The translations under genes and the position numbers were made by a program. This document shows, piece by piece, positions 2,826 through 23,868 of a stretch of 61,428 bases of DNA. This DNA is from Candidatus Omnitrophota bacterium (GTDB lineage: Bacteria > Omnitrophota > Gorgyraeia > Aquiviventales > JACQRC01), in NCBI GenBank assembly GCA_016206665.1, contig JACQRC010000044.1:1-61428 (forward strand), given 5' to 3'. The notes under the pieces were generated by a model. The model worked only from the letters and a program-made list of their open reading frames with translations, did not search any database and was not told the origin of the DNA. How positions within the stretch are numbered: position 1 is the first letter of the stretch; each line of letters begins with the position of its first letter.

Positions 2826-3842
2826 ATGCCGCATCCGTCCAGCCACAAGCTGAACATCGCCGACGTCGCCAAGGCGGCGGGCGTTTCCACGACGACCGTT
2901 TCGCGGGTCATCAACCGCATCGGGACCGTCAAGGAGTCGAACCGCGCCCGCGTGCTCGACGCCATCCGCAAAATGAAGTACCGACCCAACCCCAGCGCCC
3001 AGCGCCTCGCCGCCGGCAAGAATAACACCATCGGCCTCGTCATTCCCCGCTTCCAGGATATGTTCCATTCGTTCTATATCACCGAGCTGATGCGCGGGGT
3101 GGGCACCGCGAGCGAGCGGCTGAAGCTCGACCTGCTCCTGCATATCACGGACGGACCCTGGACGAACATGCAGAGCGTCGAGGGGCTGCTGTTCGCCGAT
3201 CTCGACGGCAGCGAGGAGCTGGTCGACGCGGCCGTCGAACAAGGGATTCCCTGCGTCATCATGAATCATTTCCTCGAAGAGCTGCCGGTCTCCTGCGTCG
3301 CCGTTGACAACCGCAAGGCCGCGCGGGAGGTGGTGCGATACCTCGCCGAGTTAGGGCATCAGGAGATCGCCACGATCACCGGCCATCTACGGACCCATGT
3401 GGGCATCGAGCGCCTCGACGGCTACCTGGCCGCCATCAAGGAGCGCAAGCTGCCGATGAAGGAGGCTTACGTGGAGCATGGCGACTTCGGCGCTCCCTCG
3501 GCCCGGGAACCGGCCAAGCGGCTGCTCGGCCTGAAGGATCGGCCGACCGCGATCTTCGCGGCGAGCGATGCGATGGCGGTCGAGACGATCGAGGTCGCCT
3601 TCGAGCTGGGCCTGCGGGTGCCCGAGGATCTGTCGGTGGTCGGCTTTGATGACAGCCCGGTGGCCGCCTTCGGCCGGGTGCCGTTGACGACCGTGTGGCA
3701 GCCCCTGAGCGGCGTGGGCGAGCAGTCCGTCGAGATTCTGCATGATCAGATCGACGGGAAGGTGAAGTCGCCCATCAAGCGGCTGTTGCCCACCCAAATC
3801 ATCAAGCGGCAGTCCTGCCGGCAGACCTGGCTGGAACGGTAA
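2826..3842 (+). CDS. LacI family transcriptional regulator
   Basis: NIADVAKAAGVSTTTVSRVIN HTH, YRPNPSAQRL hinge, RVPEDLSVVGFDD, PLTTVWQP. Confidence 0.95.
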   Translation: MPHPSSHKLNIADVAKAAGVSTTTVSRVINRIGTVKESNRARVLDAIRKMKYRPNPSAQRLAAGKNNTIGLVIPRFQDMFHSFYITELMRGVGTASERLKLDLLLHITDGPWTNMQSVEGLLFADLDGSEELVDAAVEQGIPCVIMNHFLEELPVSCVAVDNRKAAREVVRYLAELGHQEIATITGHLRTHVGIERLDGYLAAIKERKLPMKEAYVEHGDFGAPSAREPAKRLLGLKDRPTAIFAASDAMAVETIEVAFELGLRVPEDLSVVGFDDSPVAAFGRVPLTTVWQPLSGVGEQSVEILHDQIDGKVKSPIKRLLPTQIIKRQSCRQTWLER

Positions 3843-14551: not shown

Positions 14552-14580
14552 TTGATGTTTTCGCGATCCGGTGATATACT
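14552..14580 (+). promoter_or_regulatory. sigma70-type promoter of the pilus operon leader
   Basis: TTGATG-17 nt-TATACT with an extended -10 TG. Confidence 0.6.
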
Positions 14581-14589
14581 TAATTCGAC

Positions 14590-14670
14590 ATTGATCCTTC
14601 GACTCGTTTCACTCGCTCAGGATCAATCCTGAGCGAGTCCCGCCGGAGGCGGGATGAGTCGAAGGATTGA
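14590..14670. repeat. Family A palindromic element, copy 2
   Basis: ATTGA-TCC-TTCGACT...CGCTCAG-GATCAATCC-TGAGCG...GAGTCGAA-GG-ATTGA; flanking ATTGA direct repeat. Confidence 0.88.
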
Positions 14671-14679
14671 CAATTGAGA

Positions 14680-14831
14680 TGTTTGAAAAAGGCTAACCTC
14701 CGCCACAGTGCGTGGCGGACCTCGCCCGCCAGCGAAGCTGGCGAGGCGGGGCGCTGTAAAGCGGGGGCGCAAAGTTCCAGCTCCACATCCAGGCGTGTCT
14801 GCCTGGGCGTGGGGGGCTGAACTGCCAAACA
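14680..14831 (+). promoter_or_regulatory. Cyclic di-GMP-I (GEMM) riboswitch aptamer with a 53-nt insertion in P2
   Basis: P1 TGTTTG/CAAACA; GGCTAACC...CGCT-GTAA-AGCG-GG-GGCGCAAAG; P3 GTTCCAGCTCC...GGGGGGCTGAAC-TGCC. Confidence 0.8.
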
Positions 14832-14853: not shown

Positions 14854-14888
14854 ACACGCCCCATCGCTTACGCTGATGGGGCGTTTTC
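14854..14888 (+). terminator. Terminator hairpin, likely riboswitch expression platform
   Basis: ACGCCCCATC-loop-GATGGGGCGT-TTTC between the aptamer and ATG 14908. Confidence 0.65.
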
Positions 14889-14907
14889 ATTGGCATGCAG
14901 AGCGCAC

Positions 14908-15186
14908 ATGAATAACCACGATCGCGAGAAAGACAACGCCGCGCGGCGATCCCACCGGGTCATCGCCGCGCTGAACCGCGAGCAGGTCGACTTCCTCGAC
15001 AAGTTGGGGAAGGACGCCCTCTTCTCCAGCGGCGTCAAACTCTCCCGCACCGAAATCCTGTCCGCCATGGTCGATATCCTCAGGAAACTTCGCGTGAGCG
15101 GTGAGGGCTTGGCCTCCCGCGACGGCCTGGAAGAGCGCATCTTGGCTGCCATGAAACAATCGAAGGGGGGGAAGCTTCATGAGTAA
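14908..15186 (+). CDS. Small ribbon-helix-helix-like protein
   Basis: HRVIAAL strand, REQVDFLDKLGKD helix, LSRTEILSAMVDIL helix; first gene after the riboswitch. Confidence 0.6.
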   Translation: MNNHDREKDNAARRSHRVIAALNREQVDFLDKLGKDALFSSGVKLSRTEILSAMVDILRKLRVSGEGLASRDGLEERILAAMKQSKGGKLHE

Positions 15187-16663
15187 GTGGCTGAAGAATC
15201 TCTCGCTCGGCCCGCGCGGTCTGACCTATAAGCGGGCCATCGTCTTCTGCCTGATGTCAGGCTTCCCGCTCCTGGTCATGGTCCTGCTGGCCGGGCTCTA
15301 CATCTATCCCTACACCGACTGGCTCAAGCCGATCTTTCCCATTGCCCAGGATCCGATGGCTTCGATCAAGTGGGTGACCCTGGTCATCGTCCTGACCATG
15401 GTGGTCTCCCTGGTGGGCTGGGTGGTCTTCATGGAGATCATCGCGCCCATCATCACGATTGCCCGGGAAACGGAGATCATCGCCAAGGGGCACATCGAGC
15501 GCGACGTCACGGTCAAGCGTGAGGATGAGATCGGCGATCTCTCGGCTGCCATCAACACGATGACCAGCCGGATCCGCAGCAACATGGAGGAGCTCAAGCA
15601 GTTCGGCGACCGGACCAAGGAGCTGAATCTCGACATCCACAAGAAGATCCTGGCCCTGTCCAATCTGCTCCAGGTGGGCAATCTCATCAGCCAGAAGACC
15701 CCGATGGATGAGCTCATGCCGTTCGCCGTCCAGAAGCTCTATCAGATTAACGAAGACGACATCATCGCCCTGCTGCTCATGCAGCCGGATGCCGAGCATG
15801 GTCAGCCGGAGCTGATCGTGCGGGCCACGGCCGGCTGCCCGGACCGTCAGACGTTGATTCTGCAGTCCCTGGTGACGGCGCCGCTCTTCCGGCAGGCGGT
15901 GCAGAGCCAGACGGTGCAGCTCATCGACCAGGCCCATCCGGCCGCCGAGGCGGAGAGCGCCTCGGTGCTCGAGCGGCTGGGGTGCACCAACCTGGTGTTG
16001 ATTCCCGTGACGGTCAAGGGCAAATGCTTCGGGCTGTTCGTTTGCCTGAACACGCTGGCCCAACGCGCCTTCCAGGATGATTACCTGGAGGTGGTCAAGG
16101 TCTTTGCGAAGCAGGTAGCCATTGCCTCCGAGCACGATTTCCTGGTCAAGAAGGCCGAGGCGCTGACGGTCATCGATGAGCTGACCGGCCTCTACAACCA
16201 CAAATACCTTCGCCATCAGCTCAACGAGGAGATCAAGCGGTCGATGCGCTATCAGCGGCCCTGCGCCCTCGTCATCTTTGACATCGACGAGTTTGGTACG
16301 CTTGGCAGCGCTCCGGTGAATGCCGAGGAGCGGCAGGCGGCCCTCAAAGGGCTCGGAGCCCTCCTCAGGCAGCGCCTCAGCGATATCGATCGCGCGGCTC
16401 GGTTGGACGATGACACGCTGGCCGTGATTCTGCCGGACCGCAACAAGCGGGAGGCCACGCAGGAGGCCGAGGAGCTGCGGAAGGAGATCGAGGCGTTGCC
16501 GATCAACACCGGCATCTTTCGGTCGAAGAAGCGCCTCACGGTGTCGGCGGGCGTGTCGGAGAATCCCATTGATGGGTCGACCGCGGACGCCCTCCTGGAG
16601 AAGGCGGGCGGCGCCTTGCGCACCGCGAAATCATTGGGCAAGAACCGCGTCATGGTGGCTTAA
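15179..16663 (+). CDS. Membrane HAMP-GAF-GGDEF protein with degenerate active site
   Basis: Two TM helices, REDEIGDLSAAINTM HAMP, DELTGLYN, DIDEFG, ARLDDDTL in place of GGDEF, TVSAGV, AKSLGKNRV. Confidence 0.88.
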   Translation: MSKWLKNLSLGPRGLTYKRAIVFCLMSGFPLLVMVLLAGLYIYPYTDWLKPIFPIAQDPMASIKWVTLVIVLTMVVSLVGWVVFMEIIAPIITIARETEIIAKGHIERDVTVKREDEIGDLSAAINTMTSRIRSNMEELKQFGDRTKELNLDIHKKILALSNLLQVGNLISQKTPMDELMPFAVQKLYQINEDDIIALLLMQPDAEHGQPELIVRATAGCPDRQTLILQSLVTAPLFRQAVQSQTVQLIDQAHPAAEAESASVLERLGCTNLVLIPVTVKGKCFGLFVCLNTLAQRAFQDDYLEVVKVFAKQVAIASEHDFLVKKAEALTVIDELTGLYNHKYLRHQLNEEIKRSMRYQRPCALVIFDIDEFGTLGSAPVNAEERQAALKGLGALLRQRLSDIDRAARLDDDTLAVILPDRNKREATQEAEELRKEIEALPINTGIFRSKKRLTVSAGVSENPIDGSTADALLEKAGGALRTAKSLGKNRVMVA

Positions 16664-16676
16664 GGAGGATCCGTCA

Positions 16677-17756
16677 ATGACCCAGGCTTCATTGAATCTC
16701 TCGTTGGAGTCGTTGCTGCACCTGATGATTGAAAAGGGGGCGTCGGACCTGCACAACACGGCCGGCTCGCCGCCGCACCTGCGCGTCGACAACGAACTGG
16801 TGCCGGTCGGCGATGGGGGCTTGAGCCCCGAGCAGACGCGGACTCTGACTTACCAGGCGATCAACGAGACGCAGCAGAAGCGGTTTGAGGAGGCCCTGGA
16901 GCTGGATTTCGCCTTCGGGATCGCGGGGTTGTCCCGGTTCCGCGGCAACTGCTTTGTCCAGCGGGGCGCGGTGGGCCTGGCGATCCGGGCGATTCCCTAC
17001 CAGATCCGGAACTTCGCCGAGTGCGGGTTGCCGGAGAAGGTCGTCATCGAGTTCTGCCGCAAGCCGCGGGGCCTGGTGCTGGTGACCGGCGCGACAGGCT
17101 CCGGCAAGTCGACGAGTCTCGCCTCCATGATCAACTGGATCAACCAGGAGCGGACCGCCCACATCGTGACGATCGAAGATCCGGTCGAGTACACCTTTCG
17201 CAACCAAAAGGCGCTCATCGACCAGCGCGAGGTCGGCAGCGACACGCGCTCCTTTGAGCAGGGCCTGCGCCATGTGCTCCGCCAGGACCCCAACGTCATT
17301 CTCATCGGTGAGATGCGTGACCTGGAGACCGTCGAGGCCGCCCTGAACATCGCCGAGACCGGGCACCTGGTGTTTGCGACGCTGCACACCTCGGACAGCG
17401 TCCAGACCATCAACCGGATCATCGACGTCTTTCCGAGCCACCGGCAGCCCCAGGTGCGGACCCAGCTCTCCTTCGTATTGCTGGGCGTGCTCTGCCAACA
17501 GCTGATTCCCAAGGTCAAGGGCGGCCGGGTGCTGGCCTGTGAGGTGATGGTCGCGAACCACGCGGTGCGCAGCCTGGTGCGCGAATCGAAGGCCCACCAG
17601 ATGTACTCCATCATCCAGACGGGCCAGAAGGAAGGGATGCGCACGATGAACCAGTCGCTCTACGAGCTGTACACCAAGAACACGATCAGCTTGGATGAGG
17701 CCTTGTCCCGCACCACGGAAGTGGAAGATCTGGAACGGATGATCATGCACAAGTAG
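16677..17756 (+). CDS. pilT: Type IV pilus retraction ATPase
   Basis: GASDLH, GATGSGKST, TIEDPVE, LRQDPNVILIGEMRD, AETGHLVFATLHT, AVRSLVRE (AIRNLIRE-like); AAGGAGG RBS before ATG 16677. Confidence 0.95.
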   Translation: MTQASLNLSLESLLHLMIEKGASDLHNTAGSPPHLRVDNELVPVGDGGLSPEQTRTLTYQAINETQQKRFEEALELDFAFGIAGLSRFRGNCFVQRGAVGLAIRAIPYQIRNFAECGLPEKVVIEFCRKPRGLVLVTGATGSGKSTSLASMINWINQERTAHIVTIEDPVEYTFRNQKALIDQREVGSDTRSFEQGLRHVLRQDPNVILIGEMRDLETVEAALNIAETGHLVFATLHTSDSVQTINRIIDVFPSHRQPQVRTQLSFVLLGVLCQQLIPKVKGGRVLACEVMVANHAVRSLVRESKAHQMYSIIQTGQKEGMRTMNQSLYELYTKNTISLDEALSRTTEVEDLERMIMHK

Positions 17757-17784: not shown

Positions 17785-17860
17785 CATGATGCTTCGATTC
17801 GGCCACTGCGGTGGCCTCACTCAGCATCATGATGAGCGAGCGAAGCGAGTCGAATCATGA
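17785..17860. repeat. Family A palindromic element, copy 3
   Basis: CATGA-TGC-TTCGATT...CACTCAG-CATCATGA-TGAGCG...GAGTCGAAT-CATGA; CATGA direct repeat. Confidence 0.88.
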
Positions 17861-18303
17861 CGTTTAAACGGCAACCCATCAAACAGCTCGGCGAGCTCTT
17901 GCTCTCGATGGCGCTCATCACCCGCGAGCAGCTCGAGCAGGCGCTGGCCCTCCAAAAGACCAAGGGAGGCCTGTTGGGCCAGATCCTGGTCGACCTGGGC
18001 TACGTGACGGAGGATCAGATCGCGCAGTCCCTGACCGCCCAGTACGGCTTTCCCTACCTGCCGCTGCGCAACTATGAGGTCGACGCCGAAGTGCTGAAAC
18101 TGATTCCCGAGAACGTGGCCAAGCAGTACTGTTTGATTCCGGTGGATCTGATCGGCCAGACGATCACCATCGCGATGGCGAATCCGCTCAACACCCAGGC
18201 GATCGAGGACGTGGAGCTGATGACCAAGTGCAAGGTGCAGGCCTTTGTCAGCACGGCCTCGGATGTGAACGGGGCCATCGTGAAGTACTATAACGGAAAA
18301 TAG
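17857..18303 (+). CDS. Stand-alone MshEN / T2SSE_N domain protein (candidate c-di-GMP receptor)
   Basis: KQLGELLLSMALITREQLEQALALQ-5 aa-LLGQILVDLGYVTEDQIAQSLTAQ tandem motif, IAMANP; no ATPase domain. Confidence 0.85.
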   Translation: MTFKRQPIKQLGELLLSMALITREQLEQALALQKTKGGLLGQILVDLGYVTEDQIAQSLTAQYGFPYLPLRNYEVDAEVLKLIPENVAKQYCLIPVDLIGQTITIAMANPLNTQAIEDVELMTKCKVQAFVSTASDVNGAIVKYYNGK

Positions 18304-18305
18304 CC

Positions 18306-20102
18306 ATGGCGCAACTCCTCCTGAAAAAGCGGCTCACGGAGATCCTAATTGAGCATCAGCTGCTGACGCAGGTCCAGCTGGACGAGGCGCTCGTCCAGCA
18401 GCGCGCCAGCGGCGGCCGGCTGCGGGACATTCTGATCCAGCGCGGCTTCGTCCAGAAGGATCACCTGATGGGCATCCTCGGCCAGGCGCTGGGCATTCCG
18501 CCGATGAAACTCAGCCGCTACCAGATCGACACGGCGGTCGCCAAGCTCATCACCCGCAAGATGGCCGAGACCTACCAGATTTTGCCTGTCTCCAAGATGG
18601 GCAATACGCTGACCGTGGCGATGGCTGATCCGCTGAACGTCTTTGCGCTCGACGCGCTGCAGTCGCTCACGATGTACGATATCTCGCCCATCATCACGAC
18701 CGAAGAGGAGCTCAAGCACGCCCTCGAGCGCATCTATGGGGAGGCGCGGCGTCAGGCGATCGAGACGATCGTCGAGGACTTGACCAATCGGCCGTCCTCC
18801 GTCATGATGGCAGGCCCGGCCACCGAGGTCTCGAACGATCGCGCCGCGCTGCTGCGCTCGGCCCAAGATGCGCCCGTCGTGAAGATCACCAACCTGCTGG
18901 TCGCCGATTCGGTGACGCAGGGCGCCAGCGACGTGCTGATCGAGCCGTTCGAGAAGTCCATGCGCGTCCGGTACCGGATCGACGGCATGCTGCGCGAGAT
19001 CCAGGCGCCCCCCCTGTCCATGCATCAGGCGATCGTCACCCGCATCAAGGTCATCTCCACGCTGGACATCGCGGAGCACCGGCTGCCCCAGGATGGGCGG
19101 TTCAAACTAAACATCGGGGATCGGGTGGTCGATTTTCGCGTGTCGGTGTTGCCGTCCAGTTTTGGGGAGAAGGTCGCCCTGCGCATCCTGGACAAATCAC
19201 AAGCGACGCTCGACATCGACAAGCTGGGTTTCGAGAAGGCGACGGTGGACAAGCTCAAACAATGCGCGCTGCGGCCGCACGGCATGATTCTGATCACCGG
19301 GCCGACCGGCTCCGGCAAGACCACCACCCTCTATTCGATTCTGAAGTATGCCGATTCGCCCGACAAGAACATCGTCACCGTCGAGGATCCGGTCGAGTAC
19401 GAGCTGATGGGGATCAACCAGGTGGCGGTGCGCACGGAGATCGGCCTTACCTTCGCGTCGTCCTTGCGCTCGATTCTGCGGCAGGACCCGGATATCATCA
19501 TGGTCGGCGAGATCCGTGATTTCGAGACGGTCGACACCGCCATCAAGAGCGCGTTGACCGGACATTTGGTGCTCAGCACCCTGCACACCACCACGGCGGC
19601 CGGCTCCATCGTCCGGCTCACCAACATGGGGGTGGAGCCTTTCTTGATCACCGCCTCCATGATCGCCGTGGGGTCCCAGCGGCTGGTGCGCAAATTGTGC
19701 CTCAAGTGCCGGGAGGGGTACGAGCCATCGCGGGAACTGTTAGAGAAGGTGCATCTGCCGCAACTGCCGGCGCATACCGTCTTTTATCGTCCGAAGGGGT
19801 GCGACCACTGTTTCAAATCGGGCTACCACGGACGGGTCGGCCTGCTCGAAGTCCTCATGCTCACGCCGGGCGTTAAGGAGCTCGTGATGAAGCGCTCCCA
19901 GGAAAATGTCATCAAGCATCTGGCGCGGGAGGAGGGGATGCAGACCCTGCGGGAGGACGGCAGCCAAAAAGTGCTGCGCGGGGAGACCTCGCTCGAAGAG
20001 GTGCTCCGCGTCTCCGTCAGCGATCTGGAGACGGCCACCCCGGCCGCCGATCGTGATGGTGAGCGGAGTCCTGCCCGACGGCGGGGCGGAGTCGAACCAT
20101 GA
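18306..20102 (+). CDS. pilB: Type IV pilus extension ATPase (PilB/GspE family), paralog 1
   Basis: RLPQDGRF, GPTGSGKTT, TVEDPVEY, LRQDPDIIMVGEIRD, STLHT, CxxC..CxxC. Confidence 0.92.
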   Translation: MAQLLLKKRLTEILIEHQLLTQVQLDEALVQQRASGGRLRDILIQRGFVQKDHLMGILGQALGIPPMKLSRYQIDTAVAKLITRKMAETYQILPVSKMGNTLTVAMADPLNVFALDALQSLTMYDISPIITTEEELKHALERIYGEARRQAIETIVEDLTNRPSSVMMAGPATEVSNDRAALLRSAQDAPVVKITNLLVADSVTQGASDVLIEPFEKSMRVRYRIDGMLREIQAPPLSMHQAIVTRIKVISTLDIAEHRLPQDGRFKLNIGDRVVDFRVSVLPSSFGEKVALRILDKSQATLDIDKLGFEKATVDKLKQCALRPHGMILITGPTGSGKTTTLYSILKYADSPDKNIVTVEDPVEYELMGINQVAVRTEIGLTFASSLRSILRQDPDIIMVGEIRDFETVDTAIKSALTGHLVLSTLHTTTAAGSIVRLTNMGVEPFLITASMIAVGSQRLVRKLCLKCREGYEPSRELLEKVHLPQLPAHTVFYRPKGCDHCFKSGYHGRVGLLEVLMLTPGVKELVMKRSQENVIKHLAREEGMQTLREDGSQKVLRGETSLEEVLRVSVSDLETATPAADRDGERSPARRRGGVEP

Positions 20103-23185: not shown

Positions 23186-23297
23186 TGGCTCCCGTACCAA
23201 GGGCTAACCTCGAGCAATCGGGGGGCGCAAAGCCACAGACCCCACCGCTTTGCTTCGCAAAGCGAAGCAGTGGGGTGGCTGGGTTGCCGTTGAGCCA
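23186..23297 (+). promoter_or_regulatory. Cyclic di-GMP-I (GEMM) riboswitch aptamer
   Basis: P1 TGGCTC/GAGCCA; GGGCTAACC-TCGA-GCAA-TCGG-GG-GGCGCAAAGCCACAGACC...GGTGGCTGGGTTGCC matches the family consensus. Confidence 0.88.
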
Positions 23298-23307
23298 GAC
23301 GCACTCG

Positions 23308-23343
23308 ACGGCTACGGGAAACAGTCCCGTAGCCGATTTTGTT
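23308..23343 (+). terminator. Terminator hairpin, likely riboswitch expression platform
   Basis: CGGCTACGGGA-AACAG-TCCCGTAGCCG-ATTTTTGTT; competing GCCGTTGAG/CTCGACGGC helix overlaps both aptamer and terminator. Confidence 0.75.
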
Positions 23344-23355
23344 GGAGGCCGGAGC

Positions 23356-23868
23356 ATGATGCGTATGTCTCAGCGCCAGCGAAGGCGCACCCCCCATATG
23401 CTCGGCTTTTCATTGGCCGAGGTGGTGGTGACGATCGGCATCCTGGCCCTGGCGCTGAGCGGCATCATGGTGGCTTTTGTGGGGGCGGCCGCCTTGAACG
23501 AGGATTCCGAGATGTTGAGCAAGGCGCTCGATACAGGCATGGCGCAGATCGAAGCCACGCGCCTGGCCGCCATCAATAATTTCGGCGCCGTGGTGCCCGG
23601 GACGACCTTCTTTACCATCCCGGGGCCTGCCAGCGCGCCGAACGCCTATGCGGCGACGAGCCGGGGGGTGCTGACCGTGACCGCGGCTCCGGCGGGCAGC
23701 TTCTACTACGTCATCACCGCCAAGGTCTGCTGGCAGGGGCGGGCCGGTCGCAGCATGGGGGAGGACCGGAATCTCAACGGCACGCTGGATGGGGGCGAGG
23801 ATACGAACGGCGACGGCCAGCTCACTTGCCCGGTGGACCTGGTGACGACCGTGGCACGGAGAAACTGA
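23356..23868 (+). CDS. Minor pilin (PilV-like)
   Basis: GGAGG RBS; basic leader, G|FSLAEVVV prepilin motif; GEDRNLNGTLDGGEDTNGDG loop. Confidence 0.85.
   Translation: MMRMSQRQRRRTPHMLGFSLAEVVVTIGILALALSGIMVAFVGAAALNEDSEMLSKALDTGMAQIEATRLAAINNFGAVVPGTTFFTIPGPASAPNAYAATSRGVLTVTAAPAGSFYYVITAKVCWQGRAGRSMGEDRNLNGTLDGGEDTNGDGQLTCPVDLVTTVARRN

Follow-up and report, generated by a model that had tools for sequence, protein, structure and literature searches.

Can a riboswitch aptamer take up a repeated hairpin element in one of its helices and go on working? The question is raised by positions 14680-14831 of the window, our name for the whole stretch of DNA that was analysed: 61,428 nucleotides of contig JACQRC010000044.1 from the genome of a Candidatus Omnitrophota bacterium. 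There, on the forward strand, an aptamer of the GEMM-I (c-di-GMP-I) class, which senses cyclic di-GMP (c-di-GMP), has its P2 helix split by 53 extra nucleotides. The aptamer is genuine, and the insert is a copy of a double-hairpin repeat family dispersed in the phylum; we will argue that the insertion is probably tolerated. Throughout, G000 is the genome of the window and C20 the contig that carries the aptamer at 14680-14831; other G labels stand for relatives, and L labels for loci.

An aptamer with an interrupted stem

The sequence-only reading that first singled out this locus placed a c-di-GMP-I aptamer at exactly these coordinates, and alignment to covariance models agrees with it. With cmscan in E-value mode, positions 1-80 of the c-di-GMP-I-GGC model (RF03167) align to 14682-14830 with a single insertion, 63 nt that replace the 10-nt P2 tip of the model, for a score of 29.2 bits (E = 5.6e-05, gathering score 59). 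The alignment is full-length and covers all paired regions of the three helices P1, P2 and P3. The shortfall in score is due to the penalty on the 63-nt insertion.

Read from 5' to 3', the locus consists of AAAAAGGCUAACC, the insert, CGCU-GUAA-AGCG, GG-GGCGCAAAG, a long P3, and then CUGCCAAACA. P1 pairs 14680-14685 with 14826-14831, enclosing the whole aptamer. The stretch GGCUAACC, whose last base is 14698, leads up to the insert: its two final bases, C and C at 14697-14698, form the 5' strand of the P2 base, pair with G14765 and G14764, and are followed directly by the insert. On the other side of the insert, both sequence and folds give the distal part of P2 (14752-14763), with four base pairs CGCU/AGCG and a GUAA tetraloop of the GNRA type. 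The 3' strand GG of the P2 base and the P2-P3 junction J2/3 (GGC-GC-AAA), which belong to the conserved core GGGRCGCAAAG, occupy 14764-14773 in the cmscan alignment, and P3, which has a bulged C and is lengthened distally by a long, stable extension, occupies 14774-14822 (RNAfold of this piece gives -27.0 kcal/mol). In the alignment and the consensus fold, G14692 and C14693 pair with C14770 and G14769.

The roles of the residues that contact the ligand in Vc2 are described in PMC4744006. By our own mapping from the consensus in the cmscan alignment, the equivalents of G20, A47 and C92 are G14691, A14771 and C14825. The equivalent of C44 is C14768, a candidate for the C that joins P2 to P3 in the conserved interhelical C-G pair; it lies 3 nt before the A47 equivalent, just as C36 and A39 are 3 apart in Vc1 according to the same paper.

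Which ligand should such a core recognise? Positions 14769-14774 read GCAAAG where the RF03167 consensus has GCGAAG. The G of GCGAAG is what we take, from the naming of the GGC variant, to be its defining change, and it is absent here. The core is therefore of the standard c-di-GMP type, although the GGC model scores best, probably because that model includes P1. A20 marks sensors of cyclic GMP-AMP (GEMM-Ib); the equivalents of G20 and A47 being both standard, specificity for cyclic GMP-AMP and that of the GGC variant were set aside.

The insert itself, 14699-14751, is made of two self-contained hairpins, as the sequence-only reading described it. Hairpin A (14699-14719) has an 8-bp stem, UCCGCCAC/GUGGCGGA, and the loop AGUGC; in hairpin B (14720-14751), CCUCGCCCGCCAGC-GAA-GCUGGCGAGGCGGGG, a GAA loop caps 13 pairs, among which one A is bulged. 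Folded alone, the insert yields this pair of hairpins and nothing else (-42.2 kcal/mol, z = -6.55), and none of 200 shuffles does as well. The whole aptamer folds at about -87 kcal/mol (z = -4.75) with both insert hairpins and the GNRA hairpin retained. Each hairpin closes on itself, and intact pairs of P2 flank the insert on both sides, so that the result is a four-way junction without unpaired bases. P2 is thus split after its second base pair, with two pairs below the junction and four above it. The total of 6 bp is that of insert-free orthologs, for example CCACUC-GUAA-GGGUGG, in keeping with the claim that removing 14699-14751 would leave a canonical GNRA-capped P2. A P2 of this normal length would allow its GUAA tetraloop to dock into a receptor in P3.

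The locus with its insert is contiguous in contigs of three groundwater metagenome runs, in which no joint skips the insert; these runs are not independent support, because they are possibly the source from which the genome bin was assembled. The four runs compared consist of DNA contigs, and a search for RNA runs with the locus listed none. In all testable features except the formal score, 14680-14831 is a genuine full-length GEMM-I aptamer.

A dispersed double-hairpin family

Where does the insert come from? It also occurs outside this leader, and the sequence of hairpin A is conserved across the phylum; both findings go beyond the sequence-only reading. A BLAST search of 14690-14765 against the genome gives matches on three other contigs, and a pattern scan of G000 finds hairpin A with a second hairpin at five loci, on C20, C81, C78, C93 and C48, the last at the end of its contig. 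On C20, C81 and C78 the module is flanked by parts of a GEMM-I aptamer: GC(A/U/C)A(A/C)CC immediately precedes it, and the GNRA hairpin and GGGNCGCAAAG come after it. The CCCGCCA-type hairpin is found at two further loci of G000, on C60, where two tandem copies stand immediately 5' of an aptamer, and on C46.

The copy on C93, at 3406-3447 of the reverse strand (locus L003/L227), is of a different kind: here the module adds 42 nt in frame to a SufD-like open reading frame, close to its C-terminal end, and is translated as PPPQGAADPPRNMAG. These 14 residues are absent from 13 of the 13 orthologs compared, which have only PF(A/E)P at this place.

In several relatives the family is far more abundant than expected by chance. 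Hairpin pattern matches number 21+18 in G001 against 0+0 for the reversed pattern used as control, 40+40 against 2+2 in G026, and 12+12 against 1+1 in G016; with up to 2 mismatches, at least one match is found in 36 of 41 genomes, some of which are not above control. At the 20 loci of G001 that were read, the hairpin is nearly always in tandem with a second one, and the contexts are varied: intergenic composites, partial 5' copies of transfer RNA (tRNA) genes, the V1 helix of 16S ribosomal RNA (rRNA), the 5' side of GGCAAAC in three aptamers, and the inside of P2 at L065. The unit thus occurs at many unrelated loci and above chance, and the insert at 14699-14751 is one copy of a double-hairpin repeat that is dispersed in Candidatus Omnitrophota.

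Two of these contexts deserve a separate description. Partial 5' copies of a tRNA are found just upstream of the intact tRNA at L070, L075 and L077 in G001, and at L211, L213, L214, L219, L220 and L222 in other Omnitrophota. The partial copies are broken by the module at the position of the D-loop, or of the anticodon loop in L075; in L077, a 90-nt tandem repeat consists of the 5' end of the tRNA and the module. At the three tRNA loci on which it was tried, ARAGORN calls intact tRNAs only. In the 16S rRNA gene of G001, a hairpin of the same sequence family (UCCGCCAUAGCAAUGUGGCGGA) makes up the V1 helix (L079, G001:C26:21240-21760).

Recurrence and lability in riboswitches

The first gene downstream of our leader codes for a 92-aa protein, and its orthologs make it possible to compare orthologous leaders, as the sequence-only reading had advised. 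We collected 110 leaders, of which 102 are unique; 4 of these have no aptamer or are too short, and the other 98, from across Omnitrophota, have a GEMM-I aptamer upstream of the gene. These counts, like many of those that follow, are our own reading of printed leaders, and the genomes are metagenome-assembled and mutually related.

The span between GGCAAAC and GCAAAG has its canonical 18 nt in 71 of the 98 aptamers. Two hairpins are found on the 5' strand of P2 in 10 (L081, L083, L090, L095, L099, L130, L135, L139, L177 and L178), and two hairpins in J2/3, between GGGNC and GCAAAG, in 19 (L084, L091, L094, L102, L104-L106, L110, L132, L137, L143, L157, L160, L162, L184, L188 and L196, together with L095 and L135); P2 and J2/3 are both occupied in 2. 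Close relatives disagree: G017 has the P2 insert, whereas in G004, of the same genus, GGGCAAACC runs into CGCCGCAAGGCG with nothing between them, and the same-genus pairs G026/G034 and G016/G036 are also discordant.

A wider count was obtained with a pattern that joins the J1/2 core to hairpin A, and that by construction favours words resembling J1/2. It matches 31 times in 24 of 401 sampled genomes of the phylum, against a single match for the reversed control. By our reading, these are 14 aptamers with a P2 insert, 1 aptamer cut short where its contig ends, 3 modules situated 5' of aptamers, 7 matches adjoining partial tRNA copies or close to a tRNA gene, and 6 in other contexts. With L031, L065 and the ortholog set included, the P2-insert architecture is present in at least 22 distinct GEMM-I aptamers of the phylum.

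Within G000, the same position of P2 carries the module in three riboswitches (C20, C81 and C78). The density of GEMM-I aptamers in this genome is very high, with 16 over threshold and 4 credible ones below it in a 1.5-Mb bin that is 76% complete, and inserts of hairpin families are found in at least 5 of these roughly 20: in P2 on C20, C81 and C78, at the 5' edge on C60, and in J2/3 on C79.

The effect of the inserts on model scores was followed by running cmscan on 20 of the 30 order-level ortholog loci. The eight loci without insert score 53-67 bits, and those with a P2 insert only 42.9, 37.5 and 24.2 bits. Loci with a J2/3 insert only score 31.0 and 22.6 bits, five more giving no hit at E <= 1; L095, with inserts in both P2 and J2/3, also gives no hit at E <= 1. 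In L085, P2 and J2/3 are canonical, the 5' side is altered, and the score is 36.7 bits.

Some inserts in J2/3 have features of their own. A 3x3 internal loop of the UUC/UUC type marks the first hairpin of L084, L091 and L196, and a GAA/GAA loop the second; the UUC and GAA loops are mutually complementary, so that a loop-loop contact or an alternative fold is possible. The UCCGC..GGCGGA hairpins of the P2 insert also make up the J2/3 insert of L188 and L132.

A separate indication of movement by such elements comes from two contigs of the same bin, C79:1-330(-) and C95:1000-1250(-) (L026 and L016). They share a GEMM-I leader that is 100% identical over about 110 nt on each side of the site at which they differ: C79 has a 103-nt block of two hairpins between GGGGUC and GCAAAG, in J2/3, and C95 has none. 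The block belongs to another hairpin family, at another site, than the P2 insert. Since the contigs differ upstream of the promoter, they are either paralogous loci or strain variants; whichever the origin, identical flanks with the block in one only point to its very recent gain or loss. In the aptamer at C95:1065-1166(-) the 3' half is moreover duplicated (CAGGAUCGCCAGGCUGCCGAA ... CAGGAUCGCCGGGUUACCAAA), so that P3 and P1 might be closed in two alternative ways.

Is the interrupted aptamer still working?

The explanation that we favour, and that the sequence comparisons make probable in our judgement, is that of a repeat-derived insertion, structurally tolerated, in a c-di-GMP riboswitch that has most likely kept its function, probably that of an OFF switch. 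The P2 stem would have taken up a 53-nt double-hairpin element from the repeat family dispersed in the phylum. If the four-way junction stacks pairwise, as such junctions are expected to, the 2-bp base of P2 would stack on the 4-bp GNRA-capped tip and mimic an unbroken 6-bp P2, and hairpin A would stack on hairpin B, both pointing away. With the length of P2 thus kept at 6 bp, GUAA could still dock on P3, and the ligand pocket formed by P1, P2 and P3 would be untouched. The stacking idea would also explain why units of two hairpins are found at both hot spots, P2 and J2/3; two hairpins may equally be just the unit of the element.

What speaks for this tolerance is the state in which insert-bearing aptamers are kept. 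In 16 parsed aptamers, the pair that brackets the insert and the GNRA hairpin is C:G in 8, U:A in 5 and U:G in 3, with no mismatches, each of the four distal pairs of P2 shows 4-5 base combinations, mostly Watson-Crick, and the tetraloops are GCAA in 7, GAAA in 5 and GUAA in 4; as the parse demanded a GNRA hairpin with a purine after it, and as the genomes are related, these counts are indicative and do not amount to a formal test. The GNRA hairpin was also recognised by eye in C81, L099, L135, L139 and L217, which fell outside a correct parse, and the GNRA loop and the GGGNC..GCAAAG core are kept in all copies read. Hairpin B varies in length in other copies, with compensatory changes in its closing pairs (CC..GG, CG..CG, UC..GA and UA..UA). 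Terminator-like hairpins and T runs follow most of the insert-bearing aptamers whose downstream sequence was read. The sequence identity between L177 and L178 that is described below counts on this side as well. A decaying aptamer would not be expected to keep its core, GNRA loop, covariation, such identity and terminator.

Several observations weigh against this explanation, the softness of the covariation counts among them. The RF01051 model gives 23.6 bits at 14735-14829 for a gathering score of 35, so that the formal threshold is missed here too, and when the window is scanned with cmscan at gathering thresholds, insert in place, 14680-14831 is not reported and the sole match is the aptamer at 23192-23291; that model searches would miss the locus had been foreseen in the sequence-only reading. 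The explicit GEMM-I fold with its four-way junction, at -81.2 to -82.9 kcal/mol, comes within about 4-5 kcal/mol of the unconstrained minimum free energy of -86.5, a point in favour of the aptamer; the minimum-energy structure itself prefers small local helices to the two pairs of the P2 base and the GC/GC pairs. On the side of the repeat family, the module is low-copy in G000, with about 7 loci, and the raw pattern count of this genome at 2 mismatches is at control level (3+4, against 2+4 for the reversed pattern). Genes for Y1 transposases (PF01797) are present in G000 (1), G001 (3), G026 (2) and G016 (2), with 0 in G003, yet no module hairpins lie within 1.5 kb of the 6 Y1 loci examined, and no mobilising enzyme was identified; for this reason we rejected a link to the transposases associated with repetitive extragenic palindromes (REP), known as RAYT. 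Finally, the strong conservation of the hairpin A sequence could mean that this hairpin has a function of its own and is not a passenger.

This last point leads to the alternative that survives best, even if we consider it unlikely: the double hairpin would have been co-opted as a working part, either as a binding site for a protein or RNA, hence a second input, or as a folding delay or clamp that tunes sensitivity, its position being kept by selection. The stem of hairpin A is indeed near-invariant in the 16 parsed aptamers, over many families and in low-GC genomes as well, and its few changes are never compensatory, which looks like a constraint on the sequence itself. The insert always comes after base pair 2 of P2, and 4 of the roughly 7 module loci of G000 touch GEMM-I aptamers. 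In L177 and L178, from two related low-GC genomes, a stretch of 73 nt that begins with GGCAAAC, includes the module and ends with GCAAAG is identical (73/73), the module being 100% conserved, versus 209/232 and 220/240 identical positions in the flanks (about 91%) and a 20-nt indel in P3. However, recent copies of a mobile element would show such invariance too; the module also resides in a protein-coding gene, in intergenic composites and beside tRNA fragments; the 71 of 98 orthologous aptamers mentioned above do without any insert, and congeners are discordant. No candidate binding partner is known.

Slightly less likely again is that the insertion disabled the aptamer, in which case termination or read-through would occur regardless of c-di-GMP in a decaying riboswitch. 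The scores below the Rfam thresholds and the junction pairs missing from the minimum-energy fold would fit, as would the presence of a second repeat, called family A, in the same leader; and two hairpins as stable as those of the insert form ahead of P2 closure and could trap misfolds. Against this stand the core positions, P1, the GNRA hairpin, P3, the terminator and the promoter, all intact, the persistence of the architecture in at least 22 distinct aptamers with covariation across the split P2, and the ortholog that bears an insert and scores 42.9 bits, over the RF01051 threshold. The sequence-only reading had left the choice between a working four-way variant and an aptamer disabled by a repeat: its repeat is borne out, and comparative evidence favours the tolerated, working variant over the disabled one.

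A last alternative sees in the branched P2 an ancient sub-domain that a GEMM-I subclass inherited, multiplied as its riboswitches were duplicated, and lost cleanly in many lineages, other copies being secondary. It would accommodate the finding that distant genomes (G020, G301, G139, G269 and G386) share hairpin A and a CGCGCCA-type hairpin B at this site, and the paralogy of the C20 and C81 leaders beyond the module, but it is improbable in view of the discordance within three genera (G017/G004, G026/G034 and G016/G036), of the module being a unit in unrelated contexts, among them a gene insert missing from all 13 orthologs, and of a different double-hairpin element that differs between two contigs of one bin with identical flanks.

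The leader, its switch and its operon

We return to the tolerated insertion in a working switch, and to the surroundings of the aptamer, all features being on the forward strand. A consensus scan finds a promoter of the sigma-70 type at 14552-14580, with -35 box TTGATG, a 17-nt spacer and an extended -10 box TG-n-TATACT (1 site, versus a mean of 0.2 in shuffles); it fits the motif CTTGATG-N17-TGGTATAGTT that precedes orthologous leaders. Genes for PBP2 and RodA lie upstream, and the order rodA, promoter, leader and gene is common to the leaders of orthologs.

Between the promoter and the aptamer, and thus transcribed in the leader, stands the family A element that the sequence-only reading had noticed just upstream. 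It is a real composite palindromic repeat (14585-14675) with about 18 partial copies in the genome by blastn-short, and has the form of a nested palindrome: an outer stem with two inner hairpins, one of them CCCGCC-GGA-GGCGGG. Metagenome contigs break at family A, with a depth of about 1800 over 14585-14640 versus about 12 in the flanks. In run X2, 14582-14680 is replaced by 38 different letters in a single contig of low depth, which probably comes from a relative without family A.

Downstream of the aptamer, the terminator scan gives an intrinsic terminator at 14856-14889, with an 11-bp stem (14856-14884) and a T-rich tail; terminator and promoter are both intact. In folds of transcripts ending at 14866 and 14872, the 5' arm CGCCCC of the terminator (14858-14863) pairs with GGGGCG at 14763-14768, the segment that would be held by the aptamer when c-di-GMP is bound. 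With ligand, then, the terminator would form and expression would be OFF; without it, GGGGCG would pair with the terminator arm and transcription would read through. Against this scheme, the candidate antiterminator has 6 bp only and, judged by eye and from folds of truncated transcripts, its conservation in orthologs is unclear. For these reasons the direction of the switch remains uncertain, and the folding model leaves OFF and ON about evenly balanced.

The operon begins with the gene of the 92-aa protein (14908-15186), which matches no family in the Pfam scan. The same scan identifies a HAMP-GAF-GGDEF diguanylate cyclase (15179-16663), a PilT/T2SSE-like ATPase (16569-17756), an MshEN-domain protein (17857-18303) and an MshEN+T2SSE ATPase (18306-20102). 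An operon of a diguanylate cyclase and MshEN/type IV pilus ATPases fits control by c-di-GMP. The 92-aa gene is single-copy in 31 of the 37 genomes of the order, and its product is a candidate small player in c-di-GMP signalling.

The second GEMM-I aptamer of the window, at 23192-23291, scores 53.7 bits and has its own promoter-like TATACT and terminator; the stretch 23310-23460 was read along with it. An open reading frame starts downstream of it at 23357, with an N-terminus that, to our eye, resembles a prepilin (GFSLAEVVVTIGILA). The tip of its P3 is the palindrome GCUUUGCUUCGC/GCGAAGC, which also forms P3 tips on C78 and C44; P3 tips thus seem to be colonised by another repeat.

Relation to known systems

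The locus is a new structural variant of a known riboswitch class. It shares with GEMM-I (RF01051), represented by Vc2 and Vc1 of Vibrio cholerae, the P1/P2/P3 architecture, the GGC(A/U)AAC and GGGNCGCAAAG cores, the equivalents of G20, A47 and C92, the GNRA-capped P2, an intrinsic terminator, and genes for c-di-GMP and pili downstream. It differs in that P2 is broken after base pair 2 by two hairpins, and in its scores below the gathering values. RF03167 is the best-scoring Rfam model, yet the sequence here is GCAAAG and not GCGAAG. In the literature searched, which leaves most subscription journals outside its scope, we found nothing relevant on GEMM-I aptamers with such inserts, or on repeats inside riboswitch aptamers.

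Among dispersed repeats, REP and the bacterial interspersed mosaic elements (BIME) are short GC-rich palindromic hairpins with many dispersed copies, often clustered, in which the stem is conserved and the loop variable. The module hairpins share all these traits. Unlike REP and BIME, the module is not restricted to extragenic DNA and its unit is two tandem hairpins; unlike the REP/RAYT system, its copies do not flank the Y1 (RAYT-like) genes at the loci described above.

Two other families offer partial parallels. According to PMC1779305, Rickettsia palindromic elements are 100-150 bp long, are interspersed in both intergenic and coding regions, and form in-frame inserts. The SufD-like insert resembles them in this respect, although the module is only 42-53 nt and the lineage unrelated. 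For fungal mitochondria, PMC2800124 states that double-hairpin elements stay in the transcripts and are missing from parts of structural importance. Hairpin and double-hairpin elements of mitochondria in fungi and sponges are similar in being repeats that invade length-variable sites of structural RNA genes; unlike our module, they are organellar and are reported from rRNA genes and intergenic regions, not from a riboswitch aptamer, and no relation in sequence is implied.

Significance

The usual view of riboswitch aptamers is that they tolerate little change, and long insertions cost score in covariance models. It is tempting to conjecture, as a broader and distinctly more tentative claim, that the double-hairpin families of Omnitrophota are mobile DNA compatible with RNA structure, which settles preferentially in helices and junctions: P2, J2/3 and the 5' edge of GEMM-I, D-loop positions of tRNA, and variable helices of rRNA. 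Four-way junctions would leave the host RNA working, GEMM-I aptamers branched at P2 or J2/3 would be widespread functional subclasses that escape present covariance models, and hairpin A, with its invariant sequence, may be the recognition site of a mobilising or RNA-binding factor.

For the weight of P2 geometry in tetraloop docking, the aptamer at 14680-14831 is a direct test case. If it binds its ligand, counts of riboswitches in Omnitrophota are too low, 4 of the roughly 20 GEMM-I aptamers of G000 being sub-threshold, and the inserts draw a natural map of the sites at which GEMM-I permits insertions, P2 and, as a second hot spot, J2/3, that would be useful for biosensors. More generally, perfect four-way junctions may then let selfish hairpin DNA live in functional RNAs.

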